Shown: positions 18,801 through 57,378 of the stretch, piece after piece | Layout of the letters: each line of letters opens with the position of its first letter | Position numbering within the stretch: position 1 is the first letter of the stretch | Assembly (NCBI RefSeq): GCF_048403405.1 | Contig: NZ_CP183129.1 | Length of the DNA: 64,000 bases | Strand: one strand, 5' to 3' | Origin: Escherichia coli | GTDB taxonomy: Bacteria; Pseudomonadota; Gammaproteobacteria; Enterobacterales; Enterobacteriaceae | Notes under the pieces: model-generated | The model's database searches: none | What the model was told of the DNA's origin: nothing | What the model saw: only the letters and a program-made list of their open reading frames with translations | Position numbers and translations under genes: made by a program

Positions 18801-19592
18801 TTACATCGCGTTCAGACGTTTTTGTGCCTGTTTAGCGCCATCAGTACCAGGGTATTTACTGATAACCTGCTGGTATACGGCTTTCGCTTTTGCGGTGTCA
18901 CCTTTGTCCTGCATGATGACACCGACTTTAAACATCGCATCTGCAGCCTTTGGCGACTTCGGATAGTTTTTTACTACCGAAGCAAAATAGTACGCCGCAT
19001 CATCTTTTTTACCCTTGTTGTAGTTTAACTGACCCAGCCAATAATTGGCGTTTGGCAGGTAAGTTGAATCAGGGTAATTTTTGATGAAATTCTGAAATGC
19101 CACCATTGCGTCATCCTGGCGGGATTTATCCTGCACCAGCGCAATTGCTGCATTGTAATCCGTGTTTGCATCGCCGCTTTTCACCGGCGCGCCAGCATTC
19201 GCAGTACCAGCATCAGCTGTCGGCGTCGTTGATGCCGCCGCACCGCTTTGATCACCGCTGGTTGATTGCGCCGCTGCACCACCGCTGCTGAGGCTATCGA
19301 TCTGCAACAGGATCTGCTTTTGCCGCTCCACGACCTGATTCAGTTGATACTGATTTTCCTGAATCTGACCACGCAGGGAATCAATATCGGATTGATTATC
19401 AGAGAGTTGTTGCTGGAGTTGGGTTAAAAGCTGGCTGTGAGCATTTGAAATACGCTCAAGTTGAGTGACGCGGTCTTCGACCGAGCCTGAGCCGACACTA
19501 CTGATTGGTGCCTGAGCAAAAGCGGCCCAGGGGGCCGCTATACCAACCAGTAACGACAGACTCAATAGTTGATGTCTGAAGTTACTGCTCAT
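18801..19592 (-). CDS. cpoB: Cell division coordinator CpoB (YbgF)
   Basis: 263 aa; signal peptide, coiled-coil and C-terminal TPR repeats; last gene of the tol-pal cluster. Confidence 0.93.
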   Translation of the reverse strand: MSSNFRHQLLSLSLLVGIAAPWAAFAQAPISSVGSGSVEDRVTQLERISNAHSQLLTQLQQQLSDNQSDIDSLRGQIQENQYQLNQVVERQKQILLQIDSLSSGGAAAQSTSGDQSGAAASTTPTADAGTANAGAPVKSGDANTDYNAAIALVQDKSRQDDAMVAFQNFIKNYPDSTYLPNANYWLGQLNYNKGKKDDAAYYFASVVKNYPKSPKAADAMFKVGVIMQDKGDTAKAKAVYQQVISKYPGTDGAKQAQKRLNAM

Positions 19593-19601
19593 GCAATTCT
19601 C

Positions 19602-20147
<546 letters not shown>

Positions 20148-28083: not shown

Positions 28084-28537
28084 AACCAACCAAATATGTT
28101 AATTATGTATAAACCATAGATCATTGGTGATTTTATTGTTAATTTATTGTGAAATATTTATGCAACACAATTATTACAATGAAAAGGTATAGATAAAAAA
28201 CCAGTGTTTTATTTAACAGAACCGCCTTATCCACTTTTTATAATACCAATTGATTAGATTAGCCAATTTGTTGCTATTTTACATAACATATTTTTATCAA
28301 AGTTAATTGATTGTTGCGTTTATGAGCACCGGCCGTAAGCCCGTTATGTTATTGTTTCATTAGTAATAATCACTTAAATGTATCGATGAAACAGGTATGA
28401 CTTAGCGGGAGTGATTGTTTCTGAGTGAACAGAGACCACTTTCGCCTGATAAATGAAAAATGAGCGATTTTTGCAAGTTAGTTTTTCTATAGCCGAGTAC
28501 GCTCAGCGCCTCGCTTGATTACAATGAGGTTGCTGCT

Positions 28538-29482
28538 ATGAGTCCTGATAATATCAGTTCTGCTGTCAATCGCTTCTCAGGTTGGCCATCTAATGATCCT
28601 CTAAAAACAGATAAAGAATCAATGACATCACCCATGACTGTGCAGGTAATAAAGATGATTGCCGCCATCCTTGACCCACATCGGATAGTCGTTGGAATCG
28701 ATACACTTTATACAACGCAGCGCGAAACATTTACCTCAGAGAGTCAACAGCTCATTGAATCAGCATTGCAAACACTTCATGTGATGAATTTAAATAACCT
28801 GGAAACAAATCTCGATGAGGAAGGTCACTATCTGGCTTTTGGATATAACGTTGACACTCCTGACAGAATAACCGTTTCTGCTTATAATGAAAAAAAGCCT
28901 GGCTGCTATGGCCAATGTCTTTTAATACAGGATGACGAAACAGACTTATTTAACCTGATAAAAGTTAAAATTTTTGAAGCCAGGCATAATTATGTCGCTC
29001 AATTGATGAGCGATCCGGAATTTATGTTCAAATTTAGTTATAGCGCTCAACAAAATAGATTAGAACCTCATCTTCTGGTTCCCACTTATTTCCCTCTAAA
29101 AACAAACGAACCGGTTACGCAAGAGGATGTACTGTTACTTTATCGTTTCTTTAAAATGGATGGTGATTTTAATATATTAACATCAGATGAATACATGAGT
29201 ATCATGACACCTCTGATGAAGTGTGAGCGCAGCATCCACGACCACAACAGGTATGTGACGGGCAAAGATACCCTTCTTCTGGACTATCCTCCTTCTGGTA
29301 ACCAGATATATTTCCATATTTTTCCTGACGAATCAGCAACACTAGTCCTTTATTTTTCAAACAATGACATTGAATGTTTCGTCTTTGAAAGAGATATTCC
29401 GAGCCAGTATCGCTTTTTCAAAATGTTTACCAATCTGGCACTGGTTATTGATCAGTTAACCGATGCCAATCAAATACTTTAA
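28538..29482 (+). CDS. Hypothetical protein, 314 aa, no recognisable domain; in an AT-rich block
   Basis: Long ORF in a visibly AT-rich region; polar Ser/Pro/Asn-rich N-terminus (MSPDNISSAVNRFSGWPSNDP), no signal peptide or TM segment seen; plausible purine-rich RBS-like stretch upstream (aatgaggttgctgctATG). Confidence 0.6.
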   Translation: MSPDNISSAVNRFSGWPSNDPLKTDKESMTSPMTVQVIKMIAAILDPHRIVVGIDTLYTTQRETFTSESQQLIESALQTLHVMNLNNLETNLDEEGHYLAFGYNVDTPDRITVSAYNEKKPGCYGQCLLIQDDETDLFNLIKVKIFEARHNYVAQLMSDPEFMFKFSYSAQQNRLEPHLLVPTYFPLKTNEPVTQEDVLLLYRFFKMDGDFNILTSDEYMSIMTPLMKCERSIHDHNRYVTGKDTLLLDYPPSGNQIYFHIFPDESATLVLYFSNNDIECFVFERDIPSQYRFFKMFTNLALVIDQLTDANQIL

Positions 29483-29562
29483 TTTTTATATATTCCCTGT
29501 GGCAAATATTGCTAAACAATGCCCGGGGATTAATTTTTATTACTCACGGAAAGATTTAAATA

Positions 29563-29985
29563 ATGATCCCATCTCAAATCTCTTTCAACACCCTTCCTGT
29601 CAATGCAACATACGCTTCAGAGACAACAGTTGACACACAAAAATTCTCTGACATCCTCTACTCAGCGGGGTGTTCCCTAAAGGATCTGGCTTATTTGAGC
29701 AGATGTCTGGCATCAATACATCCGACTATCGCCAAAAACATTTATGAAACAGAAAATCTCAGCGATCAAAAATTACTACATATTGATTGCCGTAGTACAA
29801 ATGAAATCAAGATAAATATCTTTTTTGGTCAACAACGAGAAGGATTAATTGAAATTAGTTCTGACACAGTCATTTTTTCGATACTGTCTTCATTGATTGA
29901 CTCCACCATTTCTAAATTTCAACACCAAAACCCCGTTAACGGTTCTGTAAATCCTGACCTATTGTATGAGGATTATACTGATTAA
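29563..29985 (+). CDS. Hypothetical protein, 140 aa, acidic, no recognisable domain
   Basis: ORF 80 bp downstream of the 314-aa ORF on the same strand; by my count about 17 Asp+Glu against about 9 Lys+Arg; same AT-rich context. Confidence 0.5.
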   Translation: MIPSQISFNTLPVNATYASETTVDTQKFSDILYSAGCSLKDLAYLSRCLASIHPTIAKNIYETENLSDQKLLHIDCRSTNEIKINIFFGQQREGLIEISSDTVIFSILSSLIDSTISKFQHQNPVNGSVNPDLLYEDYTD

Positions 29986-30532
29986 ATCCCTCCTGTCGCG
30001 AAAAATGGCCTGCGTTATTGCCAGACGTAATAAAACTTTTGATTAACGTTTCTCGTACTGGTAGCACCTTCATGTACTTTTCTTTTTTACGAAAAATCAA
30101 AAGAGCTAACAAAGGTCATAATTCGCATGAATCATTAATTATTTGTTATTTTCAACATTATTTTTACATTAAGCAGAGATGAATTGCAGTGAAATTCGAC
30201 TTAACTTTTATGAAATGCATTTACTCATGGCTAAAGCCACGTCACAAAAATGCAAATTAGAAGTAGATCACAAATATCTCAATACATCAAATCAAGTTAA
30301 TTTTAAAAATTTAATATTCATGACATTAGTTGACATAACACACTGAATTATAATGAGAATTTGAAAACACACTTTAAACAATCATTTCCCGAAAGACATT
30401 TTGAAAATAGATCAATTGCAACATTACGGTCAGATAAAGACACTCCTGTGATATTAAACCTGTGCCGTTATGAACGGCCATAAATACGACGTGTGTAACT
30501 TATTTTACTCTCTGTCTTACAAAGGATTACCC

Positions 30533-30982
30533 ATGAAGAAAGCAACACTTGTGATTGGCGTTATTGGCGCGGACTGCCATGCAGTAGGCAATAAAGTTCT
30601 GGACCGCGTTTTTAGCAACCATGGCTTCAGAGTCATTAATCTGGGCGTAATGGTCAGCCAGGACGAATATATTGATGCTGCCATTGAAACTGGTGCTGAC
30701 GCGATTGTCGTCTCCTCTATCTATGGGCATGGCGATATCGATTGTCTGGGCATGCGCGAACGCTGCATTGAGCGTGGGCTGGGTAACATCCTGCTCTATG
30801 TGGGCGGTAACCTGGTGGTCGGAAAACATGACTTCGCTGACGTGGAAACCAAGTTCAAAGAGATGGGATTTGATCGCGTCTTTGCCCCAAGTCATGACTT
30901 AGAAGATGTTTGTCAGCTGATGGCCCACGATATCAACCAACGTCATGACGTTGATACTCGCATTCTTGAAGAGGCAATCTGA
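30533..30982 (+). CDS. mamA: Glutamate mutase sigma (S) subunit, B12-binding component
   Basis: Start set at [21 protein letters not shown] (good RBS aaaggattacccATG); carries the cobalamin His-ligand motif DxHxxG (DCHAVG); close resemblance to clostridial GlmS/MutS as I recall them. Confidence 0.9.
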
Positions 30983-32370
30983 TGCAAATCGTCTCTGTCG
31001 ATATTGGATCGACGTGGACCAAAGCAGCCCTCTTCGCCCGGGAGGGGGACGCGTTAACGTTGGTTAACCACGTACTGACCCCAACCACCACCCATCATCT
31101 GGCGAAGGGTTTTTTCTCCAGCCTGAACCTGGTGTTAAACGTAGATAATGCCCTCCCCCTGTTTAACAACGGTGAGGTTGCATTGAAGTATTCCTCCTCT
31201 GCCAAAGGTGGGCTGGCGGTTGCCGCAATGGGGTTGGTGCCATCTATCACCCTGGAAACCGCGAAAGTAACCGCTCACTCTGCGGGGGCTAAAATTGCGC
31301 AATATTACGCCTACAAGCTGAACCGCCGTGATATCCAGGCACTGGAAGAAACGCAGCCCGATATTCTCTTGTTCACCGGCGGCACCGACGGCGGAGAAGA
31401 AAGCTACGGCCTGAATAACGCCCGTGTGCTGGCAGAATCCAAACTCGACTGCGCCATTATTTATGCCGGAAACCGGGATATTCAGGACGAGGTGCAGGAG
31501 ATCCTAGGGCATAAAGACCTGACCATCGTCGACAACGTTCTGCCCGATCTTGACCATCCGAACCCTTTAGCTGCACGCCAGGCTATCTGCGACATATTCC
31601 TTAAACGCATCGTTAAAGGGAAAGGGCTGGATGTCATTGTTGATAAAACAGGCGAAGAACCAATGCCGACACCATGGACGGTCTTTGAACTGGTTAAGGC
31701 AATCAGTAACGTCGATCACAGCTGGAAAGAGTTCATGCTTATCGACATGGGCGGCGCAACCACCGATGTCTATTCAGCCTGTGCCAACACGCTCTCGCCC
31801 GACACCGTTTTACACGGCGTACCGGAACCCTTCGTGAAACGGACGGTGGAAGGCGATCTGGGAATGCGCGTCTCGGCAATGGTGGTTGGTGAAAGTGCGA
31901 AAGAGTTAGTCAATGTGAATTTTGCTCAGCAACCCGCACAGCTGGACGCTTTTTATCATTACCTCCGTCATCTAGTCGCTCATCCCGACTACTTACCCGC
32001 GAATGTAGAAGAAAAATATTTCGATACCGTCCTGGCCGGACTGTGTGTGGGTTATGCCACCGAAAGACATGCGGGCACCAAAAAAGAGGTCTGCACCTGC
32101 GTCGGCAATGTCGATTTACAGATGGGACGTGACCTGACAACCGTGCGTAAAGTCGTCGGATCCGGCGGATGGCTCTCGCGTGCCAGTCAGTTCGATATGC
32201 ATCACTGGTTGAAATACCGCGAGTTAAACGACGACGGTAAACGCATTCTCTTACCGACCGAATTTGAATATTACCGCGATTCCCGGGGGCTATTACCACT
32301 GCTGGCAAACGTCGCCAGAGTCGATCCGCTGGCCGCCGCGCGCACCAGTATTCAATGCTTAACCCTATAA
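30982..32370 (+). CDS. glmL: Glutamate mutase-associated L component (MutL/GlmL-like, putative reactivating chaperone)
   Basis: 462-aa ORF whose ATG overlaps the S-subunit stop (ATGA); sits between S and E as in clostridial mutS-mutL-mutE; N-terminus [18 protein letters not shown] is an ASKHA-type phosphate-1 motif. Confidence 0.75.
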   Translation: MQIVSVDIGSTWTKAALFAREGDALTLVNHVLTPTTTHHLAKGFFSSLNLVLNVDNALPLFNNGEVALKYSSSAKGGLAVAAMGLVPSITLETAKVTAHSAGAKIAQYYAYKLNRRDIQALEETQPDILLFTGGTDGGEESYGLNNARVLAESKLDCAIIYAGNRDIQDEVQEILGHKDLTIVDNVLPDLDHPNPLAARQAICDIFLKRIVKGKGLDVIVDKTGEEPMPTPWTVFELVKAISNVDHSWKEFMLIDMGGATTDVYSACANTLSPDTVLHGVPEPFVKRTVEGDLGMRVSAMVVGESAKELVNVNFAQQPAQLDAFYHYLRHLVAHPDYLPANVEEKYFDTVLAGLCVGYATERHAGTKKEVCTCVGNVDLQMGRDLTTVRKVVGSGGWLSRASQFDMHHWLKYRELNDDGKRILLPTEFEYYRDSRGLLPLLANVARVDPLAAARTSIQCLTL

Positions 32371-32388
32371 CAATTAAGGCTGCAATCA

Positions 32389-33834
32389 ATGGAACTTCGA
32401 AATAAGAAATTAACCCATGACGAATTCATGACCGAGCGGCAACAGGTACTGAAAACCTGGGAAACCGGCAAGGATGTTGAAAACTTTGAAGATGGCGTTA
32501 AATACCAACAAACCATTCCTGAGCATAAACGCTTCTCTCTTGTGCTGTTGAAAGCAGACAAGGAAGGTAAAACCCTTAGCCAACCGCGCGCAGGTGTGGC
32601 GCTGATGGACGAACACATCGAACTACTGAAAACACTACAAGAAGAGTGCGATCTGCTGCCGAGCACTATCGATGCATATACCCGTCTGAATCGGTACGAA
32701 GAAGCGGCTGTAGGGATTAAAAAATCCATCGAAGCCGGAACCTCTAAACTGAACGGTTTACCGGTCGTTAACCACGGCGTCGCAGCTTGCCGTCGCCTCA
32801 CCGAAACTTTGCAAAAACCGCTACAGATCCGCCACGGCACGCCAGATGCGCGTCTGCTGGCTGAAATCTCGATGTCCAGCGGCTTTACCAGTTATGAAGG
32901 CGGCGGCATTTCCTACAATATTCCGTATGCCAAGCGCGTAACGCTGGAAAAATCGATCCGCGACTGGCAGTACTGCGACCGTTTAATGGGGATGTATGAA
33001 GAACACGGGATCCGCATCAACCGCGAACCGTTTGGCCCACTAACGGGTACGCTGATCCCGCCGTTTATCTCGCACTCTATCGCGATAATCGAAGGCTTGC
33101 TGGCGCTGGAACAGGGTGTGAAATCTATCACCGTTGGTTATGGACAGGTCGGCAGCCTGACGCAGGATGTTGCGGCGATCCAGTCTCTGCGTGAACTTGC
33201 ACACGAATATTTTCAGAGCTATGGCTATACCGACTATGAATTAAGTACCGTGTTTCACCAGTGGATGGGCGGCTTTCCGGAAGACGAATCGAAAGCGTTC
33301 GCTATTATCTCCTGGGGCGCAGCCGTCGCGGGGATGTCTGGTGCCACCAAAGTCATCACCAAAAGTCCGCACGAAGCCTGGGGTATCCCGACTGCCGCTG
33401 CCAACATTCAGGGGCTGAAAGCCTCCCGCCAGATGCTCAACATGGTCAACGAGCAGAAATTCCCGCCGTGCCCTGCGGTTGAACTGGAAATTGAACTGAT
33501 TAAGAGCGAGGTTCGCGCGGTACTGAATAAAGTGTTCGAACTGGGTAATGGTGATATTGCGCGCGGTACGGTGCTGGCATTTGAAGCGGGCGTACTGGAT
33601 GTGCCGTTTGCGCCAGCCGCCTGCAACGCGGGCAAAATTCTTCCGGTCCGTGACAACACCGGCGCGATACGCGTACTGGAAGCCGGAGCCGTTCCATTGC
33701 CAAAAGATATTCTCGACCTCCACCACGATTACGTTGCGGAACGCGCACGCTTTGAAGGACGCCAACCGACATTCCAGATGGTTGTAGATGACATCAATGC
33801 TGTATCCCACAGTAAATTAATAGGAAGACCATAA
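32389..33834 (+). CDS. glmE: Glutamate mutase epsilon (E) catalytic subunit
   Basis: 481 aa; MELRNKKLTHDEF..., QPRAGVALMDEHIELL, LPSTIDAYTR, NGLPVVNHGV and GGGISYNIPYAK closely parallel clostridial GlmE/MutE as I recall it. Confidence 0.9.
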   Translation: MELRNKKLTHDEFMTERQQVLKTWETGKDVENFEDGVKYQQTIPEHKRFSLVLLKADKEGKTLSQPRAGVALMDEHIELLKTLQEECDLLPSTIDAYTRLNRYEEAAVGIKKSIEAGTSKLNGLPVVNHGVAACRRLTETLQKPLQIRHGTPDARLLAEISMSSGFTSYEGGGISYNIPYAKRVTLEKSIRDWQYCDRLMGMYEEHGIRINREPFGPLTGTLIPPFISHSIAIIEGLLALEQGVKSITVGYGQVGSLTQDVAAIQSLRELAHEYFQSYGYTDYELSTVFHQWMGGFPEDESKAFAIISWGAAVAGMSGATKVITKSPHEAWGIPTAAANIQGLKASRQMLNMVNEQKFPPCPAVELEIELIKSEVRAVLNKVFELGNGDIARGTVLAFEAGVLDVPFAPAACNAGKILPVRDNTGAIRVLEAGAVPLPKDILDLHHDYVAERARFEGRQPTFQMVVDDINAVSHSKLIGRP

Positions 33835-35075
33835 TGAAAATAAAACAGGCTCTGTTCACCGCTGGCTACTCCTCATTCTATTTCGATGACCAGCAGGCGA
33901 TAAAAAACGGAGCGGGTCACGACGGTTTTTTTTATACCGGGGAGCCGGTAACACAGGGGTTTAACGCCGTTCGTCAGGCCGGGGAGTGCGTATCGGTACA
34001 GTTGATTCTGGAAAACGGCGCGGTCGCCGTAGGTGACTGTGCTGCCGTACAGTATTCCGGGGCAGGTGGTCGCGATCCACTGTTCCTCGCAGAGCACTTT
34101 ATTCCGTTCCTCAACGACCATATCAAGCCATTACTGGTAGGCCGCGATGTGGATGCTTTCCTGCCGAATGCCCGTTTCTTCGACAAATTGCGTATTGACG
34201 GCAACTTGCTGCATACCGCCGTGCGCTACGGATTATCACAGGCGCTGCTTGATGCTACCGCGCTGGCAACCGGCCGTCTGAAAACTGAAGTGGTCTGTGA
34301 TGAATGGCAGTTGCCACGCGTGGCGGAATCCATTCCATTATTTGGTCAGAGCGGCGACGATCGATATATCGCCGTCGATAAGATGATCCTTAAGGGCATC
34401 GACGTGCTGCCCCATGCGCTGATTAATAACGTCGAAGAGAAGCTGGGCTTTAAAGGTGAAAAACTGCGCGAATATGTCCGCTGGCTGTCGGATCGTATTC
34501 TGAGCAAGCGCACCAGCGCACGCTACCACCCTACCCTGCACATCGATGTATACGGCACTATCGGTCTGATCTTCGATATGGATCCGCTTCGCTGTGCGCA
34601 ATACATCGCCAGCCTGGAAAAAGAAGCGCAAGGCCTGCCGCTCTACATTGAAGGGCCGGTCGATGCTGGTAACAAGCCCGATCAAATTCGCCTGCTGACC
34701 GCGATTACCAAAGAGCTGACACGCCTCGGTTCCGGCGTGAAAATTGTGGCCGATGAATGGTGTAACACCTACCAGGATATTGTTGATTTCACAGATGCCG
34801 CCAGTTGCCACATGGTGCAAATCAAAACCCCGGATCTGGGCAGTATTCACAACATCGTCGATGCGGTTCTTTACTGCAACAGCCACAGCATGGAAGCGTA
34901 CCAGGGCGGCACCTGCAATGAAACTGATGTCAGTGCCCGCACCTGTGTCCACGTCGCCCTTGCCGCTCGCCCTATGCGTATGCTGGTAAAGCCAGGGATG
35001 GGCTTTGACGAAGGCCTCGATATCGTCTTCAACGAAATGAATCGTACTATCGCGCTGTTGCAGGCTAAGGATTAA
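33834..35075 (+). CDS. mal: 3-Methylaspartate ammonia-lyase (enolase superfamily)
   Basis: 413 aa; ATG overlaps the glmE stop; DCAAVQYSGAGGRDPLF, QSGDDRY, LPHALINNVEEKLG, HMVQIKTPDLG and GGTCNET match MAL as I recall it. Confidence 0.93.
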   Translation: MKIKQALFTAGYSSFYFDDQQAIKNGAGHDGFFYTGEPVTQGFNAVRQAGECVSVQLILENGAVAVGDCAAVQYSGAGGRDPLFLAEHFIPFLNDHIKPLLVGRDVDAFLPNARFFDKLRIDGNLLHTAVRYGLSQALLDATALATGRLKTEVVCDEWQLPRVAESIPLFGQSGDDRYIAVDKMILKGIDVLPHALINNVEEKLGFKGEKLREYVRWLSDRILSKRTSARYHPTLHIDVYGTIGLIFDMDPLRCAQYIASLEKEAQGLPLYIEGPVDAGNKPDQIRLLTAITKELTRLGSGVKIVADEWCNTYQDIVDFTDAASCHMVQIKTPDLGSIHNIVDAVLYCNSHSMEAYQGGTCNETDVSARTCVHVALAARPMRMLVKPGMGFDEGLDIVFNEMNRTIALLQAKD

Positions 35076-35078
35076 CAA

Positions 35079-36449
35079 ATGGCTCGTTCTTTTAAAGTCT
35101 TATCGCCAACGGCAATCCTCGGGTATGGATTCCCGGAAGAGAGCTTCCGTAAAGCGATGGCAGAATCGCCCGATCTGATCGCCGTTGATGCAGGCTCTTC
35201 CGATCCTGGCCCCCACTACCTCGGGGCGGGCAAACCGTTTACCGATCGCGCAGGGGTCAAGCGCGATCTGCGCTATATGATCACCGCAGGCGTGCAAAAT
35301 AATATACCGGTGGTGATCGGAACGGCTGGCGGTTCTGGTGCCGCACCACACCTGGAGTGGTGCCGAGAAATAATTCATGAGATTGCCCAGGAAGAGCACC
35401 TCTCGTTCTCAATGGCGCTGATCCCGGCAGACGTTGACAAAGCCATCGTCCACCAGGCGCTGGATAACGGCAAAATCACGGCGCTGGAGTTTGTCCCGCC
35501 GTTAACCCACGACGCGATTGACGAAAGTACGTATATCGTTGCGCAAATGGGCATCGAACCCTTCCAGCGGGCGCTGAAAGAAGGCGCGCAAGTGGTGCTG
35601 GGCGGGCGCGCTTACGACCCGGCCTGCTTTGCTGCGCTTCCGATCATGCAAGGCTTTGATGAAGGTCTGGCGCTGCATTGTGGGAAAATCCTTGAATGCG
35701 CGGCAATCGCCGCAACGCCCGGCTCAGGCTCTGACTGTGCGATGGGCATCATTGATGACAACGGCTTTACGCTGAAGACATTTAATCCGAAGCGTAAATT
35801 TACCGAAACGTCAGCGGCTGCACACACACTGTATGAGAAATCCGATCCCTACTTCCTGCCTGGACCTGGCGGCGTGTTGAACCTGAAAGGCTGCACATTT
35901 AAAGCGGTCAATGACAGCGAAGTGTACGTCAGCGGTTCTAAGCATGAAGAAACGCCGTATGCCCTGAAACTGGAAGGTGCGCGACGAGTGGGCTTCCGCT
36001 GTCTGACCATCGCAGGAACGCGCGACCCGATCATGATCGCCGGGATCGATAAAATCATCGATGAAGTCAAAACCAGCGTTTCGCGTAACCTGTCGCTCGA
36101 CGATGACAGCATTCGCATCAATTTCCACCTGTACGGCAAAAACGGGGTGATGGGAGACCATGAACCGATGCAAACTGCCGGGCATGAGCTGGGGATTGTC
36201 CTTGATGTAGTTGCACCGACCCAGGAAATTGCCAACAGCGTTTGCTCGCTGGTGCGCTCTACCATGCTGCACTACGGCTATGAAAACCGCATCGCTACCG
36301 CAGGTAATCTGGCGTTCCCGTTCTCCCCTTCTGATATCCAGGGCGGGCCGGTATACGAATTTTCCATATATCACCTGATTGAAGCCAACGACGCTCTGCG
36401 TTTTGATTTCCATATTGAACAGGTGACGCCAGAAGGAGTTCAGGCATGA
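35079..36449 (+). CDS. Uncharacterised protein, probably DUF1446 / AtuA-like family
   Basis: 456-aa ORF starting 4 nt after the MAL stop; family assignment is from memory of AtuA-like N-terminal features and is not verified. Confidence 0.5.
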   Translation: MARSFKVLSPTAILGYGFPEESFRKAMAESPDLIAVDAGSSDPGPHYLGAGKPFTDRAGVKRDLRYMITAGVQNNIPVVIGTAGGSGAAPHLEWCREIIHEIAQEEHLSFSMALIPADVDKAIVHQALDNGKITALEFVPPLTHDAIDESTYIVAQMGIEPFQRALKEGAQVVLGGRAYDPACFAALPIMQGFDEGLALHCGKILECAAIAATPGSGSDCAMGIIDDNGFTLKTFNPKRKFTETSAAAHTLYEKSDPYFLPGPGGVLNLKGCTFKAVNDSEVYVSGSKHEETPYALKLEGARRVGFRCLTIAGTRDPIMIAGIDKIIDEVKTSVSRNLSLDDDSIRINFHLYGKNGVMGDHEPMQTAGHELGIVLDVVAPTQEIANSVCSLVRSTMLHYGYENRIATAGNLAFPFSPSDIQGGPVYEFSIYHLIEANDALRFDFHIEQVTPEGVQA

Positions 36450-36763
36450 AACAGTCAATTGTCTCACTGGCGCAAGTCATTCGTTCGAAAAATGCCGGAC
36501 CTTACGAACTGGTTTTAGATATTTTATTTAAAACCAAAGAAAACTATGAGCGTGTCAAATCATCAGGGCAATTAACCCCAGAACTGATCGCGCGCTTATA
36601 TCATGTTGAACCTGACTTTATTCATCGTATTGTCTGGTTTGATCCTTCTAACGCAGTAAAAATCGTCATGCCACGAGATATTATCTCCGGGAATGTAGGT
36701 GACAATGATGTCTATGGTGCACAGCAACATGCACCTTTATTAAATATGAGTTTCGATTTGTAA
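36446..36763 (+). CDS. Small uncharacterised protein, possibly DUF4387, coupled to the upstream ORF
   Basis: 105-aa ORF whose ATG overlaps the upstream stop (ATGA); family name is a tentative recollection. Confidence 0.45.
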   Translation: MKQSIVSLAQVIRSKNAGPYELVLDILFKTKENYERVKSSGQLTPELIARLYHVEPDFIHRIVWFDPSNAVKIVMPRDIISGNVGDNDVYGAQQHAPLLNMSFDL

Positions 36764-36846
36764 AAATCCGAATACTTTTAGCCAACTGACATCCCGTCAC
36801 TTATTGCAGTTCAACACTTCAGCTATTTGTAAGGTTGTAATAGCAG

Positions 36847-36878
36847 GTAGATGCCTGAATCTCTATTCGGGCATCTAC
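36847..36878 (+). terminator. Intra-operon stem-loop (possible partial terminator or attenuator)
   Basis: 9-bp perfect stem gtagatgcc / ggcatctac with a 14-nt loop, followed by a U-rich but interrupted tract (ttctcctgattctgattt); lies between the small coupled ORF and the transporter. Confidence 0.4.
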
Positions 36879-36923
36879 TTCTCCTGATTCTGATTTATCG
36901 CCGTGCACCTGATGGAGGAAAAA

Positions 36924-38204
36924 ATGAAGAAAATAAGTTTAACCACGATGATTCTTTTGGCGCTGGTACTTGGAATGATTATCGGCGTAGTGCTCAATAA
37001 CACTGCTTCACCGGAAACCGAAAAACTCTATGCGCAAGAAATATCGATATTCACGACGATTTTCTTACGACTGATAAAAATGATTATCGCTCCGTTAGTG
37101 GTCTCTACCCTGGTGGTAGGTATAGCTAAAATGGGCGATGCCAAAGCCCTTGGTCGTATTTTTTCTAAAACACTCTTTTTATTTATTTGCGCCTCATTGC
37201 TGTCAATTGCCTTAGGCTTGATAACAGTAAATTTCTTCATGCCAGGCACAGGAATTAATTTTGTTGCACACGGAGCCGAAACCACCGGAGTGGTCGCGTC
37301 AGAACCCTTTACGCTAAAAGTATTTATTTCGCATGCTTTCCCCACCAGCATTGTCGATGCCATGGCGCACAATGAAATTTTGCAAATCGTGGTGTTCTCA
37401 ATTTTCCTCGGCTGTAGCCTGACGGCGATTGGCGAGAAAGGCAGCGCCATCGTTCACGCCTTAGATTCGCTGGCACATGCCATGTTAAAGCTCACTGGCT
37501 ACGTCATGCTCTTCGCTCCCCTGACCGTATTCGCTGCTATTTCAGCATTGATTGCTGAACGAGGACTGGCAGTTATGGTGAGCGCCGGGATCTTTATGGG
37601 TGAATTTTATTTCACCATGTTATTACTTTGGGTGCTGCTTATCGGTCTGGCCATCGTTTATGTTGGCCCCTGCATCAGACGCCTGACCCGCGCCCTTTCG
37701 GAACCCGCCCTGCTGGCATTTACCACATCCAGTTCTGAAGCGGCTTTTCCGGGAACGCTTGAAAAACTGGAGCAATTTGGCGTTTCCCCCAAAATTGCCA
37801 GCTTTGTCTTACCCATTGGCTACTCATTTAATCTTGTTGGATCAATGGCCTACTGCTCCTTCGCCACAGTTTTCATCGCCCAGGCCTGCAATATCCATTT
37901 ATCCATCGGTGAGCAAATCACCATGCTGTTGATCCTGATGTTGACCTCGAAAGGAATGGCTGGCGTACCACGCGCCTCAATGGTGGTTATCGCCGCCACG
38001 CTCAACCAGTTCAATATTCCGGAAGCGGGGCTGATCTTGCTGATGGGCGTTGATCCGTTCCTTGATATGGGGCGTTCCGCGACAAACGTCATGAGCAACG
38101 CAATGGGCGCTGCGATGGTGAGTCGGTGGGAAGGCGAACATTTCGGCGAGGGTTGTCGGGGTAAAGCATTAAAACCCAATGAATCGAACGTTGCTCTGCC
38201 CTGA
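36924..38204 (+). CDS. Dicarboxylate/amino acid:cation symporter (DAACS family; GltP/DctA-like)
   Basis: Start at MKKISLTTMILL with RBS ggagg 5 nt upstream; about 426-aa polytopic protein; LRLIKMIIAPLV and surrounding TM pattern typical of DctA/GltP family carriers. Confidence 0.8.
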   Translation: MKKISLTTMILLALVLGMIIGVVLNNTASPETEKLYAQEISIFTTIFLRLIKMIIAPLVVSTLVVGIAKMGDAKALGRIFSKTLFLFICASLLSIALGLITVNFFMPGTGINFVAHGAETTGVVASEPFTLKVFISHAFPTSIVDAMAHNEILQIVVFSIFLGCSLTAIGEKGSAIVHALDSLAHAMLKLTGYVMLFAPLTVFAAISALIAERGLAVMVSAGIFMGEFYFTMLLLWVLLIGLAIVYVGPCIRRLTRALSEPALLAFTTSSSEAAFPGTLEKLEQFGVSPKIASFVLPIGYSFNLVGSMAYCSFATVFIAQACNIHLSIGEQITMLLILMLTSKGMAGVPRASMVVIAATLNQFNIPEAGLILLMGVDPFLDMGRSATNVMSNAMGAAMVSRWEGEHFGEGCRGKALKPNESNVALP

Positions 38205-38311
38205 GGGGGATCTTAAGCAATCAGAAGCCAATGACTACGCATTTTTATAAGCCGGATCATGAAGTTAGACGGCAATTAAGTAAAACTAACGTTTAAGGTG
38301 AAAAGTGAAAT

Positions 38312-39964
38312 ATGTCCAAACCATTTATCTGGCAAGAACCGTTTCTACAAAATAAAGACGGTACAGAATATACATTAATTAGCGATCAACATATTACAGT
38401 AACGGAATTAGACGGCGAAGAAGTAATAAAAATCGCTCCTGAAGCATTAACGCTGCTTGCCCGGCAGGCATTTTATGAAGCCTCTTTTTTCTTACGTTCC
38501 GCTCATTTGCAACAGGTCGCCAGCATTCTTAACGATCCGCAGGCCAGTAGTAATGATAAATACGTTGCGTTGCAGTTATTACGTAATGCTGAAGTCTCAG
38601 CAAAAGGGGTATTACCCAACTGTCAGGATACCGGCACCGCAACTATTGTTGCCAGTAAAGGGCAACAGATATGGACGGGAGGTAACGACGCTGAAGCCTT
38701 AAGCAAAGGCATTTACAGTACTTTCCAGGAAAATAACCTGCGCTTTTCACAAAATGCGCCGCTGGATATGTACACCGAAGTCAATACGCAAACCAATCTC
38801 CCGGCGCAGATTGATATCAGCGCTGTCGCTGGTGATGAGTACCATTTTCTCTGTATTAATAAAGGGGGCGGCTCTGCCAATAAAGCCGCGCTTTATCAGG
38901 AAACCAAATCCTTATTGCAACCAGAAAAACTGACCGCATTTTTAATCGAAAAAATGAAATCGCTGGGCACCGCTGCCTGCCCGCCTTACCACATCGCCTT
39001 TGTCGTCGGAGGGCTTTCAGCCGATCAAACCTTAAAAGTTGCCAAGCTGGCCTCAACGAAATATTACGACAATTTGCCCACCAGCGGAAACGAGCAAGGA
39101 CAAGCATTCCGTGATATTGAGCTGGAAAAAGTATTGCTCGAGGCCAGTCAGCAATTTGGTATTGGTGCGCAATTTGGAGGTAAATATTTCGCTCATGATA
39201 TTCGCGTCATTCGTCTGCCGCGTCACGGTGGCTCCTGCCCGATAGCTATGGCGCTCTCCTGTTCTGCCGATCGCAATATCAAAGCAAAAATTAACAAGCA
39301 CGGTATCTGGCTGGAAAAACTCGAACACAATCCGGGGCAATATATTCCAGCCTCACTGCGGGAAGAAAATCACGCGCAACATGTACAACTGGATCTAAAC
39401 CGTCCGTTGCGTGACGTGATGCAGGATCTCGCCAGATTACCGGTAGGCACCCGCGTGTCGTTAAGTGGTCCCATCGTAGTGGCACGCGATATCGCCCACG
39501 CCAAAATAAAAGCGCGGCTGGATAACGCCGAACCGATGCCGGATTACCTGAAGCATCATATTGTCTATTACGCTGGCCCGGCGAAAACACCGGAGAACAT
39601 GGCCTGCGGTTCACTGGGTCCAACCACGGGCGGTCGAATGGACGGTTATGTCGATACCTTCCAGGCGGCTGGCGGCAGTCTGGTGATGTTATCGAAAGGT
39701 AACCGCAGCCAGCAGGTCACCGATGCCTGTCACAAACATGGTGGCTTCAATCTGGGTAGTATTGGCGGTGCAGCTGCGTTACTGGCGCAAGAATATGTCA
39801 AAAGTCTGCGTTGCCTGGAATACCCGGAGCTGGGTATGGAAGCGGTGTGGATGATGGAAGTGGAAAATCTGCCCGCATTCATCCTGGTAGATGATAAAGG
39901 CAATAATTTCTTTAGTCAGTTTGAGCAGCAACACCGCTGCGCCAGTTGCCCTGCGGGACATTAA
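38312..39964 (+). CDS. fumD: Class I fumarate hydratase-type hydratase, probable mesaconase (FumD-like)
   Basis: 550 aa, same size class as FumA/FumB; N-terminal [22 protein letters not shown]... and [10 protein letters not shown] ([4Fe-4S] hydro-lyase signature region) recognised. Confidence 0.85.
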
Positions 39965-39973
39965 GGAAAATGA

Positions 39974-40576
39974 ATGGAAGCGCGAATTTCAACTGAACGG
40001 CATGTGCAGCGCCAGCAGAAATTGAAGGAACAGGTCGATACGCGCGTCGCGGCGGCGATAGAGAAAAAAGGGATTTTGATTGTTTTCACCGGCAATGGCA
40101 AAGGGAAATCCACTGCCGCGTTTGGTACTGTGACGCGCGCGGTGGGTCATGGCAAAACGGTGGGGGTTGCGCAGTACATCAAGGGGCAATGGGACAACGG
40201 CGAATACAACCTTCTCCAGCCGCTGGGGGTTGAGTTTCATATTATGGGAACCGGTTTTACCTGGGAGACACAGAACCGGCAAGCGGATATCGACGCGGCG
40301 AAAGAGGTCTGGTCGGAAAGCAAACGGATGCTGGCTGACAAGCGTTACGACTTAGTGGTGCTTGATGAGCTGACCTATATGCTGGCTTACCATTATCTGG
40401 ACACCGAAGAAGTGATCGCTTCTCTGCAAAACCGCCCGGCACAACAAAGTGTCATTGTCACCGGACGCGGTTGCCACAGTCAGATATTAAAAATGGCGGA
40501 TACGGTCAGCGAAATCCGCCCCGTCAAACATGCTTTTGATAACGGCATTCAGGCGCAGCCGGGTATCGACTGGTAA
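39974..40576 (+). CDS. Cob(I)yrinic acid a,c-diamide / cob(I)alamin adenosyltransferase (CobA/BtuR family)
   Basis: 200 aa; P-loop GNGKGKST; near-colinear with E. coli BtuR as I recall it (IIVFTGNGKGKTTAAFG...GFTWETQNR...VVLDELTYM...VKHAFD). Confidence 0.88.
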   Translation: MEARISTERHVQRQQKLKEQVDTRVAAAIEKKGILIVFTGNGKGKSTAAFGTVTRAVGHGKTVGVAQYIKGQWDNGEYNLLQPLGVEFHIMGTGFTWETQNRQADIDAAKEVWSESKRMLADKRYDLVVLDELTYMLAYHYLDTEEVIASLQNRPAQQSVIVTGRGCHSQILKMADTVSEIRPVKHAFDNGIQAQPGIDW

Positions 40577-40579
40577 TAA

Positions 40580-40606
40580 CTGCGCCTGGCATCCCGCCAG
40601 GCGCAG
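40580..40606. terminator. Bidirectional terminator between the adenosyltransferase gene and the convergent LysR gene
   Basis: Perfect 11-bp inverted repeat ctgcgcctggc / gccaggcgcag with a 5-nt loop, flanked by A/T; abuts both stop codons. Confidence 0.7.
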
Positions 40607-40609
40607 GTT

Positions 40610-41515
40610 TTACATCTCCTGCGGTACGACCGATTTCGCCAGCAACCATTCACGAAATTGCTGCAAGTGCGGCGAGTCAGACTTCTCTTCCTGCCACGTC
40701 ATAATAAAACGATTACCGGTACGAATAGGCACATCACAGGGAATCACCATATCGCCACTATCCAAATCATGTTGAATAGCGAACCGTGGTAACAGCGCCA
40801 CGCCGAGATTAGAGCGCACGGCGGCAATCAGCATTGAAAGCAAATCGAAACGTGGTCCGTTATTGACCAGCGGACTGCTAACGCCAGATAAAGCAAACCA
40901 CTCTTCCCAGCCAGTAATACGGGTGCTTTGATGCAGAAGTGGTAACTCAGTAAGCAGTTCTGCCACTGACAGTTTTTGATCGGACATTGCAAGCAAACTG
41001 CCGCTGCATACCGGCAAAATCTCCTCATCAAAGAGATATTCTACTTCCGCCCAGGGCGCGCAAAAATTTTCGCGCATAATGACAGCATCGTACTCCCGAT
41101 TAAGAAAATCGCCGTTATTAGCTAAAGAATGAATATTAACAATAATATCGGGATGTAACTTTGTGAATTCATGTAAATTTGGGATTAACCAGTGGGTACT
41201 AAAAGTAGGATTAACGGCAAGTTCAATAACCTGAACCGTAGGCTGCCAGGTCATAATGGTATTGGTATCGCGTTCCAGCTTATTTAATGTTTCTTTTACT
41301 ATCCCCAGGTAATACTTCCCTGCATCATTAAGAAAAATACGTTTTTTAGAGTGTGAAAATAACGGAGTATGTAAAAATTCCTCCAGCGCACTCACTTGTC
41401 TGAATACAGCACTTTGGGTTAACGCTAACTCCTCTGCCGCTCTGGTATAACTTTCATGACGTGCGACGACCTCAAAAGTCACCAGCAGCTCCGTTTTAGG
41501 TATTTTTCCTCGCAT
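40610..41515 (-). CDS. LysR-type transcriptional regulator
   Basis: 301 aa; N-terminal HTH (ESYTRAAEELALTQSAVFRQVSALEE) and LysR substrate-binding domain. Confidence 0.88.
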   Translation of the reverse strand: MRGKIPKTELLVTFEVVARHESYTRAAEELALTQSAVFRQVSALEEFLHTPLFSHSKKRIFLNDAGKYYLGIVKETLNKLERDTNTIMTWQPTVQVIELAVNPTFSTHWLIPNLHEFTKLHPDIIVNIHSLANNGDFLNREYDAVIMRENFCAPWAEVEYLFDEEILPVCSGSLLAMSDQKLSVAELLTELPLLHQSTRITGWEEWFALSGVSSPLVNNGPRFDLLSMLIAAVRSNLGVALLPRFAIQHDLDSGDMVIPCDVPIRTGNRFIMTWQEEKSDSPHLQQFREWLLAKSVVPQEM

Positions 41516-41554
41516 AATGCCGTCCCTTAAAAATAGTTTAAACCATCAAAAATA

Positions 41555-41576
41555 CATTACTTATTACGAAGTAATG
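41555..41576 (-). promoter_or_regulatory. Dyad-symmetric site upstream of the LysR gene (candidate autoregulatory operator)
   Basis: Perfect inverted repeat cattactt-attacg-aagtaatg centred about 50 bp upstream of the LysR start codon, in AT-rich DNA. Confidence 0.4.
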
Positions 41577-42080
41577 GTAACCAAAGCAGCAATAAATAAT
41601 TTATAAGAATCATGATTGACATTTATAACCCAGTAAGCCTGGCGTGACAAATATCTTAATCAGATAATAATAATCCGAAAAGCACAGCGCCTTTCGAATT
41701 ATCCGGAATCACATTAAGTGAAAATTATTAAATTGATATCATTTATCATATCTGTGGATATTATGATAAACAATCAACAAAGATTTTATTTTTGATTTAT
41801 AGCATATCCCTCTAAGAATTTTTGCGATGCTGCAATATCCGGGTAAAGACCCGATCCTGGCTGACAAATGGCACGACTTGACGATAAGCGGTGAACATCG
41901 CTTTTGTTGATTTACTTAACGCTACGGTCAAACGCTGGGAAGCCAGTGCATCAGGTAACGATTCGAAATTCGCCGTCGTTCTTATTCGTGGCTTGCGGTC
42001 GGTTGCGGCAATCCACAGTGGCTGTGGTCATGCAGTCAAGCCAGCGGTCAGATTTCGACCGTGGTTAACATTTAAGGCAT

Positions 42081-48503: not shown

Positions 48504-48690
48504 CCTGCATTTCTTTTGTAGGCCGGATAAGGCATTCACGCCGCATCCGGCGCTGTTTGCCTGATGCGACGCTTGCGCGTCTTATCAGGCCTACGATTTC
48601 TGCATTTCTTTTGTAGGCCGGATAAGGCGTTCACGCCGCATCCGGCACTGGTTGCCTGATGCGACGCTTGTGCGTCTTATCAGGCCTGGG
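48504..48690. repeat. Two tandem BIME-type units (paired REP palindromes) in the sdhB-sucA spacer
   Basis: About 93-bp unit ...tttgtaggccggataaggcRttcacgccgcatccggcRctgKttgcctgatgcgacgcttgYgcgtcttatcaggcc... occurs twice in direct tandem with 4 substitutions; each unit holds two inverted REP sequences. Confidence 0.8.
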
Positions 48691-54918: not shown

Positions 54919-57378
54919 ATGGACACCGTGAATATTTATCGACTCTCTTTTATATCCTGTCTGGTCATGGCGATGCCTTGCGCATTGGCGGTCGAATTCA
55001 ATCTGAATGTTCTCGATAAATCAATGCGCGACCGCATTGATATTTCATTATTAAAGGAAAAAGGAGTCATTGCTCCCGGTGAATATTTTGTTAGCGTTGC
55101 GGTGAATAACAACCAAATCAGTAATGGGCAAAAAATCAACTGGCAAAAAAAGGGGGACAAAACCATTCCATGCATCAATGATTCACTGGTCGATAAATTT
55201 GGTTTAAAACCAGATATCCGTCAGTCCTTGCCACAGATAGATCGGTGTATTGATTTCAGTTCCCGACCTGAAATGCTCTTCAATTTCGATCAAGCCAATC
55301 AGCAACTGAATATCACTATTCCACAAGCCTGGCTGGCGTGGCACTCAGATAACTGGACTCCCCCCTCAACATGGAAAGAAGGTGTCGCCGGCGTCCTGAT
55401 GGACTACAACCTGTTTGCTAGCAGCTACCGCCCACAGGATGGTAGCAACAGCACTAACCTGAACGCCTATGGAACAGCCGGAATTAACGCGGGAGCATGG
55501 CGTTTACGCAGTGATTACCAATTGAATCAGACCGATAGCGATGATAACCATGAACAGTCAGGCGAAATATCACGCACCTATCTTTTTCGTCCATTACCGC
55601 AATTAGGTTCAAAATTAACCCTTGGTGAAACGGATTTCAGTTCCAATATTTTCGACGGCTTTTCTTATACCGGCGCGGCACTGGCAAGTGACGATCGGAT
55701 GTTACCGTGGGAGCTACGCGGCTACGCCCCACAAATCAGCGGCATTGCACAAACCAACGCCACCGTCACCGTGAGTCACTCAGGGCGAGTTATTTACCAG
55801 AAAAAAGTCCCACCAGGTCCGTTTATCATTGATGACCTTAATCAGTCCGTCCAGGGTACGTTGGATGTCAAAGTGACGGAAGAAGATGGTCGGGTGAACA
55901 ATTTCCAGGTTTCGGCAGCATCGACTCCCTTCCTGACTCGCCAGGGACAGGTTCGCTATAAATTGGCCGCGGGTCAGCCACGGCCCTCCATGTCACATCA
56001 AACTGAAAATGAAACCTTTTTTAGCAATGAAGTTTCCTGGGGGATGCTGTCAAATACCTCGCTGTACGGCGGCCTGCTGATTTCGGGTGACGACTACCAT
56101 TCTGCCGCAATGGGTATCGGGCAAAATATGCTCTGGCTTGGTGCATTGTCGTTTGATGTCACCTGGGCCAGTAGTCAGTTTGATACTCAGCAGGACGAGC
56201 GGGGCTTAAGTTACCGCTTTAATTACAGCAAACAAGTGGATGCCACTAACAGCACGATTTCGCTCGCCGCTTATCGCTTCTCAGATCGTCATTTTCACAG
56301 CTACGCCAACTATCTGGATCACAAATACAACGACAACGATGCGCAGGACGAAAAACAGACGATCAGCTTATCCGTGGGGCAACCGATTACCCCACTGAAC
56401 TTCAATCTGTACGCCAACCTGCTGCATCAAACCTGGTGGAATGCAGACGCCTCCACGACCGCCAACATCACGGCGGGTTTTAATGTTGATATTGGTAACT
56501 GGAGAGATATCTCGATCTCGACGTCATTCAATACAACCCATTACGAAGATAAAGATCGCGACAATCAGATTTACCTGTCGATTTCGCTCCCCTTCGGTAA
56601 CGGGGGGCGGGTCGGTTATGACATGCAAAACAGTAATCACAGCACCACGCACCGCATGTCGTGGAATGATACGTTAGATGAACGTAATAGCTGGGGCATG
56701 TCTACCGGACTGCAATCCGACCGTCCGGATAATGGAGCCCAGGTGAGCGGTAACTATCAGCACCTGAGTTCAGCGGGTGAGTGGGATATTTCTGGTACCT
56801 ATGCCGCCAATGATTACAGTTCCGTCAGCAGCAGCTGGAGCGGTTCTTTCACGGCAACTCAATATGGTGCAGCGTTCCATCGTCGCAGCTCCACCAATGA
56901 ACCACGTCTGATGGTCAGTACCGATGGCGTGGCAGATATTCCGGTTCAGGGCAATCTCGACTACACCAACCATTTTGGCATTGCGGTGGTGCCGTTGATT
57001 TCCAGTTATCAGCCTTCCACCGTGTCGGTGAACATGAATGATTTACCCGACGGCGTAACAGTGGCAGATAACGTTATCAAAGAAACGTGGATTGAAGGCG
57101 CGATAGGTTACAAATCGCTGGCTTCCCGTTCCGGTAAAGACGTTAACGTCATCATTCGCAACGCCAGCGGTCAGTTCCCTCCCCTCGGTGCGGATATCCG
57201 CCAGGATGATAGCGGCATTAGCGTGGGGATGGTTGGCGAGGAAGGACATGCCTGGTTAAGTGGAGTCGCTGAAAATCAACAATTTACCGTGGTCTGGGGT
57301 GATAGCCAGCGTTGCTCGATCCATCTTCCTGAACATATGGAAGACACCGCAAATCGCCTGATTTTACCTTGTCATTAA
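54919..57378 (+). CDS. ybgQ: Fimbrial outer-membrane usher, YbgQ
   Basis: About 819-aa ORF with typical usher N-terminus; start ambiguous (ATG 54919 or GTG 54928; the ORF opens at 54877). Confidence 0.85.
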   Translation: MDTVNIYRLSFISCLVMAMPCALAVEFNLNVLDKSMRDRIDISLLKEKGVIAPGEYFVSVAVNNNQISNGQKINWQKKGDKTIPCINDSLVDKFGLKPDIRQSLPQIDRCIDFSSRPEMLFNFDQANQQLNITIPQAWLAWHSDNWTPPSTWKEGVAGVLMDYNLFASSYRPQDGSNSTNLNAYGTAGINAGAWRLRSDYQLNQTDSDDNHEQSGEISRTYLFRPLPQLGSKLTLGETDFSSNIFDGFSYTGAALASDDRMLPWELRGYAPQISGIAQTNATVTVSHSGRVIYQKKVPPGPFIIDDLNQSVQGTLDVKVTEEDGRVNNFQVSAASTPFLTRQGQVRYKLAAGQPRPSMSHQTENETFFSNEVSWGMLSNTSLYGGLLISGDDYHSAAMGIGQNMLWLGALSFDVTWASSQFDTQQDERGLSYRFNYSKQVDATNSTISLAAYRFSDRHFHSYANYLDHKYNDNDAQDEKQTISLSVGQPITPLNFNLYANLLHQTWWNADASTTANITAGFNVDIGNWRDISISTSFNTTHYEDKDRDNQIYLSISLPFGNGGRVGYDMQNSNHSTTHRMSWNDTLDERNSWGMSTGLQSDRPDNGAQVSGNYQHLSSAGEWDISGTYAANDYSSVSSSWSGSFTATQYGAAFHRRSSTNEPRLMVSTDGVADIPVQGNLDYTNHFGIAVVPLISSYQPSTVSVNMNDLPDGVTVADNVIKETWIEGAIGYKSLASRSGKDVNVIIRNASGQFPPLGADIRQDDSGISVGMVGEEGHAWLSGVAENQQFTVVWGDSQRCSIHLPEHMEDTANRLILPCH

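Follow-up and report, generated by a model that had tools for sequence, protein, structure and literature searches.

The island between cydA and sdhX/sucD

The gene considered here, fumD, lies in a stretch of 64,000 nucleotides of Escherichia coli DNA (referred to as the window), inside an island that occupies a variable chromosomal site. When the K-12 sucA-ybgC region was compared with the window by blastn, homology ended at position 28108 next to cydA and began again at 42073, toward sucD and 5 nt beyond the sdhX sRNA. In K-12, the same site is filled by mngR-mngA-mngB. The features of the island are as follows.

28109..42072: variable island between cydA and sdhX/sucD, 13.96 kb in length (K-12 region aligned to the window with blastn)
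28538-29482 (+): hypothetical ORF of low GC content (ORF list/annotation)
29563-29985 (+): second hypothetical ORF of low GC content (ORF list/annotation)
30533..30982 (+): glmS, glutamate (methylaspartate) mutase B12-binding subunit S (start as annotated in RefSeq; 30470 in the program-made ORF list)
30982..32370 (+): glmL (mutL), glutamate mutase accessory/reactivating protein (ORF, RefSeq; role according to the Fig 4 legend of PMC4682846)
32389..33834 (+): glmE, glutamate mutase catalytic subunit E (ORF, RefSeq)
33834..35075 (+): mal, 3-methylaspartate ammonia-lyase, whose product, mesaconate, is the FumD substrate (ORF, RefSeq)
35079..36449 (+): cmlA, candidate citramalate lyase subunit, 'AtuA family protein' (DUF1446) in RefSeq (orthologue of chain A of PDB 9ERQ/9EVF)
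36446..36763 (+): cmlB, candidate citramalate lyase subunit, 'DUF4387 protein' in RefSeq (orthologue of chain B of PDB 9ERQ/9EVF)
36924..38204 (+): dicarboxylate/amino acid:cation symporter of the GltP/DctA type, presumed glutamate importer (start as annotated in RefSeq; GTG 36903 in the program-made ORF list)
38312..39964 (+): fumD, single-chain class I ([4Fe-4S]) fumarate hydratase homologue (ORF, published primers, NCBIfam, Pfam)
39974..40576 (+): cobO/cobA, cob(I)yrinic acid a,c-diamide adenosyltransferase (TIGR00708, 246.6 bits against a cut-off of 167.75)
40580..40606 (+): strong GC-rich hairpin of 11 pairs, nine of them G-C, between the convergent cobO and LysR genes
40610..41515 (-): LysR-family transcriptional regulator, convergent with the operon (ORF, RefSeq, NCBIfam)

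The glmS, glmL, glmE and mal genes are located 3.2-7.8 kb upstream of fumD on the same strand. The first-pass annotation had placed fumD after mal, and fumD is indeed downstream of it; however, three genes (cmlA, cmlB and the transporter gene) intervene. From glmS to cmlB, neighboring genes either overlap or are separated by no more than 18 bp, and cobO starts 9 bp past fumD, as read from the sequence. Larger spacers are present only between cmlB and the transporter gene (160 bp) and between the transporter gene and fumD (107 bp). No convincing terminator-like site was found in these two spacers. A promoter scan returned 18 sites versus 22 +/- 5.2 in shuffled sequence, with none convincing in either spacer. 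This layout fits a single operon running from glmS to cobO. As the promoter scan performed no better than on shuffled sequence, the co-transcription of these genes is something we infer. The hairpin at 40580..40606 likely marks the end of such an operon, and the product of the convergent LysR gene is a candidate regulator of the island genes. A search of 28109-42072 with Rfam at the gathering threshold gave no match to a riboswitch or other RNA element.

Some of the individual genes deserve a comment. The NCBIfam DctA and GltP matches of the symporter all fall below their cut-offs; in Fig 5 of PMC4682846, this gene is labelled GltP, and the convergent regulator is labelled LTTR. The cobO product makes adenosyl-B12, which is the cofactor form needed by glutamate mutase. 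For the two ORFs of low GC content, which lie at the island's left edge, there is no match in NCBIfam, PADLOC, PHROGs or Pfam.

The gene neighborhood of fumD is conserved. Among 5426 complete E. coli genomes, the island is found in one piece in 1117, out of 1121 that carry fumD. The order glmS-glmL-glmE-mal-cmlA-cmlB-transporter-fumD is also present in Pseudescherichia vulneris, Citrobacter amalonaticus and a metagenomic contig; in the latter two, fumD is preceded by an additional gene, for glutaminase, an order that matches Fig 5 of PMC4682846. Both E. coli and Citrobacter have cobO and the convergent LysR gene after fumD. In Pseudescherichia vulneris, the island occupies the same cydA-sucD site and includes the LysR gene, but lacks cobO and the two low-GC ORFs. 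A gene of Hafnia that is 70% identical to fumD is located beside glmSLE and cobO.

Identity of fumD and its relation to FumA and FumB

The fumD ORF in the program-made list runs from ATG to stop and encodes 550 aa. Two Pfam domains are present in the same chain, PF05681 (Fumerase, residues 50-325, E 1.7e-74) and PF05683 (Fumerase_C, residues 331-536, E 5.7e-78), so the description of the gene as a full-length class I (Fe-S) fumarase homologue holds, with exact coordinates. The closest solved structure in a PDB sequence search is the class I fumarate hydratase of Leishmania major, 5L2R (residues 18-536, E 4e-211).

FumD was named and characterized in E. coli O157:H7 by Kronen and Berg in 2015, under the locus names ECs0757 and ECATCC700728_0849 (PMC4682846). 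The primers used to clone it are printed in that paper, and their gene-specific parts are ATGTCCAAACCATTTATCTGGC and TTAATGTCCCGCAGGGCA. Each has a single match in the window with 0 mismatches: ATGTCCAAACCATTTATCTGGC at 38312-38333 (+), i.e., the 5' end of the fumD ORF, and TTAATGTCCCGCAGGGCA at 39947-39964 (-), i.e., its 3' end. The encoded protein is identical to that of an O157:H7 chromosomal copy, found in the same gene context, at 543 of 550 positions (98.7%), with 98.5% identity at the nucleotide level. The seven substitutions (window residue first) are P76Q, I182V, V243I, N405S, A406G, D411E and V447I; all are conservative, and none affects an active-site position. In NCBIfam, FumD passes the equivalog NF011921 (1284 bits against a cut-off of 1060, aligned over 1-550 of 550), while it fails both the FumA equivalog NF011919 (928.4 < 1105) and the FumB-type subfamily NF011920 (921.8 < 1094). 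Judged by its sequence, the window gene is fumD, an orthologue of ECs0757. The proposal of the first-pass annotation that this is the O157:H7 FumD orthologue, for which it recommended a comparison with the characterized enzyme, is borne out by the primer matches at both ORF ends, the protein identity, the NF011921 score and the common locus.

Two other assignments were considered and rejected. L(+)-tartrate dehydratase TtdAB was ruled out: FumD is a single chain, and its scores are below the cut-offs for the alpha (46 < 365) and beta (73 < 264) subunits. The K-12 protein also called FumD (b1675, ydhZ, 69 aa, 'fumarase D' in RefSeq) has only the name in common with the window FumD; the BLASTP E value is 1.1, and the proteins are unrelated. 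The use of one name for two unrelated E. coli proteins can mislead database look-ups. RefSeq labels the window gene only as 'class I fumarate hydratase', while the evidence supports 'mesaconase/fumarase FumD'.

The gene could in principle have arisen by a recent duplication of fumA or fumB and then entered the island. The proteins are of similar length (550 versus 548 aa) and have the same domain order, which fits such an origin. However, the identity of FumD to K-12 FumA is 69% and to FumB 67%, against 90% between FumA and FumB; by these figures, FumD is a separate paralogue of long standing. In a megablast search of the 5426 complete genomes, fumD matched one locus in 1121 of them, always with at least 95% nucleotide identity, and never fumA or fumB. 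The reciprocal fumA search gave matches in 5425 of the 5426 genomes, with both a median and a maximum of 2 places (fumA and fumB), and no third place in the fumD carriers. Also opposed to recent duplication are the failed FumA and FumB-type cut-offs and the orthologues with the same gene context in other genera. In addition, a rough neighbor-joining tree rooted on the Leishmania enzyme, which has no bootstrap values and is qualitative only, places a FumD clade from E. coli, E. fergusonii, Citrobacter, Klebsiella, Salmonella, Buttiauxella and Pseudescherichia outside the FumA/FumB pair. A recent duplication is extremely improbable, being refuted already by the identity figures.

The first-pass annotation had itself named a recent fumA/fumB duplication as an observation that would speak against its reading, and the sequences show the opposite. 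Its statements that fumD is additional to the core fumA and fumB and that it is the third class I paralogue also agree with these counts, the latter for single-chain class I fumarases. In O157:H7, fumD was counted as the fourth fumarase gene (PMC4682846).

Active site and catalytic properties

The catalytic residues of class I fumarases were described for the Leishmania major enzyme (LmFH) in a preprint on class I fumarase catalysis. In LmFH, the cluster ligands are Cys133, Cys252 and Cys346; Asp135 serves as the catalytic acid, together with His334, and Thr467 as the catalytic base, together with Arg421 and Arg471; Thr468, Gln134, Arg173, Gly216 and Lys491 are further catalytic or substrate-contacting residues. 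These positions were transferred to FumD through the 5L2R alignment, in which residue numbers of the PDB chain and of the native protein differ by 36. The [4Fe-4S] ligands correspond to C104, C223 and C317 of FumD, are identical in FumA and FumB, and are kept in 66-67 of the 67 FumD-clade sequences. Gln134, Asp135, Arg173, Gly216 and His334 correspond to Q105, D106, R144, G187 and H305, while Arg421, Thr467, Thr468, Arg471 and Lys491 correspond to R392, T438, T439, R442 and K462. All 13 active-site residues are conserved in FumD and are invariant or nearly so across the 67 clade sequences.

Three further residues differ between the enzymes, the first two of them within active-site motifs. Beside the first cysteine ligand, FumD has P-N103-C-Q-D, whereas FumA, FumB and LmFH have T or S at the position of N103. 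In the catalytic Thr-Thr-x-Gly-Arg loop, FumD reads T-T-G440-G-R, with A instead of G440 in FumA, FumB and LmFH. The third residue, N480, is Y in all three of these proteins. G440 is invariant among the 67 FumD-clade sequences, which come from a homologue list that favors sequences having words in common with the FumD query. N103, G440 and N480 were considered as a signature of mesaconases, and this idea was rejected by gene-context look-ups. A Providencia gene with N103 and G440 has an ABC transporter on one side and a fimbrial operon on the other, with no glm or mal gene within 10 kb. The metagenomic gene P0075, inside a complete glm-mal-cmlAB cluster, has A440 and Y480, and the glm-linked Hafnia gene has G440 but Y480. 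Hence, linkage to the pathway neither requires G440 and N480 nor follows from them, and none of the residues is decisive when taken singly. The failure of the signature agrees with the 2015 view that mesaconases arose repeatedly and that most class I fumarases can perform the reaction (PMC4682846). In total, 17 positions are specific to the FumD clade, including W7, L66, P150, D238, A312, L366, G379, C432, A452, S461, N480 and M514.

The catalytic properties of FumD are known from the O157:H7 protein (PMC4682846). The recombinant enzyme was active only if produced, purified and assayed under anoxic conditions. It hydrated mesaconate with a kcat/Km of 2e6 M-1 s-1 (Km 0.15 mM), fumarate with 7.5e5 M-1 s-1 (Km 0.9 mM) and (S,S)-tartrate with 50 M-1 s-1 (Km 2.6 mM), and its fumarase Vmax was 671 U/mg. 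FumA and FumB also hydrate mesaconate, with 4% and 19% of their own fumarate efficiency, respectively (PMC4682846), which means that FumD may not be strictly required for this reaction. That the window FumD hydrates mesaconate is supported by the kinetics of this 98.7%-identical protein, from which the window allele differs at 7 residues. The suggestion that the physiological substrate is mesaconate rather than fumarate is supported, with a correction as to specificity: mesaconate is favored by only about 2.7-fold in kcat/Km, and the O157:H7 enzyme is promiscuous (PMC4682846).

The proposed methylaspartate pathway and related systems

In the canonical methylaspartate route, the mutase is followed by methylaspartase, mesaconase and citramalate lyase (PMC8473912). 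The last of these was missing from the 2015 description of the cluster, where the fate of citramalate was called 'still unclear' and the DUF1446 gene encoded a protein of unknown function (PMC4682846). In a PDB sequence search, the AtuA-family protein of the island matches chain A of the crystallized 9ERQ/9EVF over 456/456 residues (E 8.8e-292, 420/456 identical), and the DUF4387 protein matches chain B over residues 1-104 (E 5.2e-57). The depositors named these chains 'Citramalate lyase, subunit A (cmlA)' and 'subunit B (cmlB)'. Literature searches by the names DUF1446 and DUF4387 returned nothing past the 2015 paper, so that the link to citramalate lyase came only via the PDB; a search on CmlAB returned only a preprint using the enzyme, and one for later enterobacterial work on the pathway gave nothing relevant. 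On the basis of the PDB molecule names and the methods of that one preprint, the pair is a candidate citramalate lyase, CmlA/CmlB, a name that the evidence supports over the RefSeq labels. A candidate enzyme is thus at hand for the reaction that follows FumD, for which none was known in 2015, and the question of the fate of citramalate appears to be answered. If this assignment is right, the island encodes every canonical methylaspartate step as well as substrate uptake and cofactor adenosylation.

We consider it highly probable that fumD encodes an oxygen-sensitive [4Fe-4S] class I mesaconase that performs the third chemical step of such an island-encoded pathway. In the proposed sequence of events, the GltP-type carrier would import glutamate, and the glutamate mutase GlmS/GlmE would convert it to (2S,3S)-3-methylaspartate. 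GlmL would keep the mutase active, with adenosyl-B12 supplied by the island's own CobO. Mal would then remove ammonia to give mesaconate (methylfumarate), FumD would add water to form (S)-citramalate, and the two-subunit lyase CmlAB would cleave it to pyruvate and acetate. With CmlAB in place, the island would cover the whole way from glutamate uptake to pyruvate and acetate. The use of this pathway in vivo, like the control of its genes by the LysR-type regulator, is presumed.

Two other explanations of the locus have to be weighed against this one. FumD might mainly be a spare fumarase for the TCA cycle or fumarate respiration, with its mesaconase activity reflecting the promiscuity of the whole family. 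Its high fumarase Vmax and its kcat/Km for fumarate agree with such a role, as does mesaconate hydration by FumA and FumB, a family-wide side activity (PMC4682846), and the island adjoins the sdh-suc TCA operon. The Km of FumD for fumarate is, however, about 6-fold higher than that for mesaconate and exceeds the values of FumB and FumA for fumarate about 4- to 10-fold (PMC4682846), and fumA and/or fumB are already present in all but one of the 5426 genomes, at a median of 2 places. The sdh-suc neighborhood is a mere insertion site, which mngRAB fills in K-12. Moreover, fumD always occurs with glm, mal and cml genes (in four enterobacterial genomes from three genera and in one metagenomic contig), never alone, and is followed almost immediately by a B12 adenosyltransferase gene. 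A spare fumarase is thus very unlikely to be the main role of FumD.

The island as a whole, including fumD, might instead be silent cargo in E. coli, its genes intact but unused, because, to our knowledge, this species does not synthesize B12 de novo and no expression of the cluster has been seen. In the O157:H7 strain, no condition was found in which the cluster was expressed; Mal activity was not detected, the strain did not grow on glutamate, and glutamate had no stimulating effect in any of the conditions used (PMC4682846). Nevertheless, this explanation is weakened by the retention of the whole island (14.4 kb) in one piece in 1117/1121 fumD-bearing genomes, by the at least 95% identity of fumD in all 1121 carriers, and by the conservative nature of the seven amino-acid changes relative to the O157:H7 copy at 98.5% nucleotide identity. 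The presence of its own adenosyltransferase and regulator in the island suggests conditional rather than absent use, and E. coli is able to take up corrinoids in the gut. Silent cargo, although it retains somewhat more probability than a spare fumarase, is also unlikely, and the assignment of FumD to the methylaspartate pathway is preferred.

A further extension of the pathway reading can be formulated only tentatively. The clade-specific changes of FumD (twelve of the 17 positions, together with Gly440) might enable flux from glutamate to pyruvate and acetate in a way that FumA and FumB are unable to substitute in vivo, and the island, with CmlAB and the LysR regulator, might constitute a conditional, B12-dependent module for fitness in the gut. 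We regard this as a doubtful possibility.

The gene itself, its kinetics, the cluster and its distribution were published in 2015 (PMC4682846), and fumD therefore carries little weight as a discovery. The by-products of this analysis are better names for fumD, cmlA and cmlB, and a pathway that now looks complete.

The closest known counterpart of the window protein is FumD of O157:H7 (ECs0757), with the same gene ends, 550-aa length, gene order and cydA-sucD chromosomal site. The host here is not O157:H7, and a fumD identical at 100% of nucleotides is found in strain TUM14771 from human feces. FumA and FumB have the fold, domain order, cysteine ligands and catalytic residues in common with FumD, but they are encoded by core genes and prefer fumarate 5- to 25-fold, whereas fumD is an island gene and its O157:H7 product prefers mesaconate (PMC4682846). 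LmFH (Leishmania major fumarate hydratase 2), from a eukaryote, is extended at its N terminus and has Ala, Ser and Tyr in place of Gly440, Asn103 and Asn480 of FumD, respectively. The same reaction and pathway logic are found in clostridial MesAB, which is composed of two subunits (alpha and beta) and belongs to a different branch of the family, and in the promiscuous class I fumarase/mesaconase of Burkholderia xenovorans (PMC4682846). Mesaconases, as Kronen and Berg concluded, arose several times independently (PMC4682846).

The pathway step after FumD

Upstream of fumD, the mesaconase gene of the island's B12-dependent methylaspartate pathway, and separated from it by a transporter gene, lies a pair of genes whose RefSeq names give no enzymatic function.

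35079-36763, plus strand: gene pair for an 'AtuA family protein' and a 'DUF4387 protein'

The two proteins match chains of PDB entries 9ERQ/9EVF, which were deposited as the citramalate lyase subunits CmlA/CmlB; the identity between the AtuA family protein and its CmlA chain is 92%. The RefSeq naming of the pair is not up to date. The pathway step past FumD is not found in the 2015 FumD paper (PMC4682846), and the candidate citramalate lyase CmlA/CmlB would represent this missing step. The name FumD itself refers to two unrelated proteins: Kronen and Berg used it for the 550-aa island enzyme, while RefSeq applies it in K-12 to the 69-aa YdhZ.

L012:4933-5142 (K-12 stretch): b1675 (YdhZ, 69 aa), RefSeq name 'fumD, fumarase D'

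Site, left edge and carriers of the island

28109-42072: fumD island, 13.96 kb, in the cydA-sucD gap
28538-29482, plus strand: ORF of 314 aa, left edge of the island
29563-29985, plus strand: ORF of 140 aa, left edge of the island

The cydA-sucD gap holds mngR-mngA-mngB in K-12 and the island in the window; the island's right border lies 5 nt beyond the sdhX sRNA. Both left-edge ORFs have a GC content of 37-38%, compared with 51% for the window. The E. coli island carries them, whereas the Pseudescherichia vulneris version lacks them; no match to them was found in NCBIfam, Pfam, PADLOC or PHROGs. This pair may have been acquired separately from the rest of the island. Among 5426 complete E. 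coli genomes, one plasmid-borne copy of fumD was detected. In one listed genome, that of strain PEC011, the island and mngA/mngB are apparently both present.

RNA elements and differences from strain TUM14771

18166-18636, minus strand: tRNA array Lys-Val-Lys-Val-Lys (5 genes) with an RtT element
19563-19701, minus strand: CpoB/ybgF thermometer (Rfam), upstream of cpoB
48521-48591 and 48616-48686, plus strand: two adjacent matches to REP-derived naRNA4 (Rfam), sdhB-sucA spacer
54919-57378, plus strand: ybgQ, fimbrial usher gene, intact

The human faecal strain TUM14771 is otherwise near-identical to the window, but its tRNA array contains seven genes and is about 390 bp longer, which is copy-number variation in a tandem array. 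Over a 10-kb stretch, only two mismatches were observed (55499 and 55599), both inside ybgQ; the former coincides with the internal stop at codon 194 for which TUM14771 ybgQ, unlike the intact window gene, is annotated as a pseudogene.

A related fumarase in a different cluster

A class I fumarase 70% identical to FumD is encoded on a Hafnia alvei-type contig (L006:1-12254). No AtuA/DUF4387 genes occur in the 21.6-kb stretch read of this contig. Its fumarase cluster, adjoined by a type VI secretion locus, is arranged otherwise than the window island: glmE-glmL-glmS on the opposite strand are followed by cobalamin genes (CbiA-type, CobS, CobT-type) and then by LysR-fumarase-cobO.
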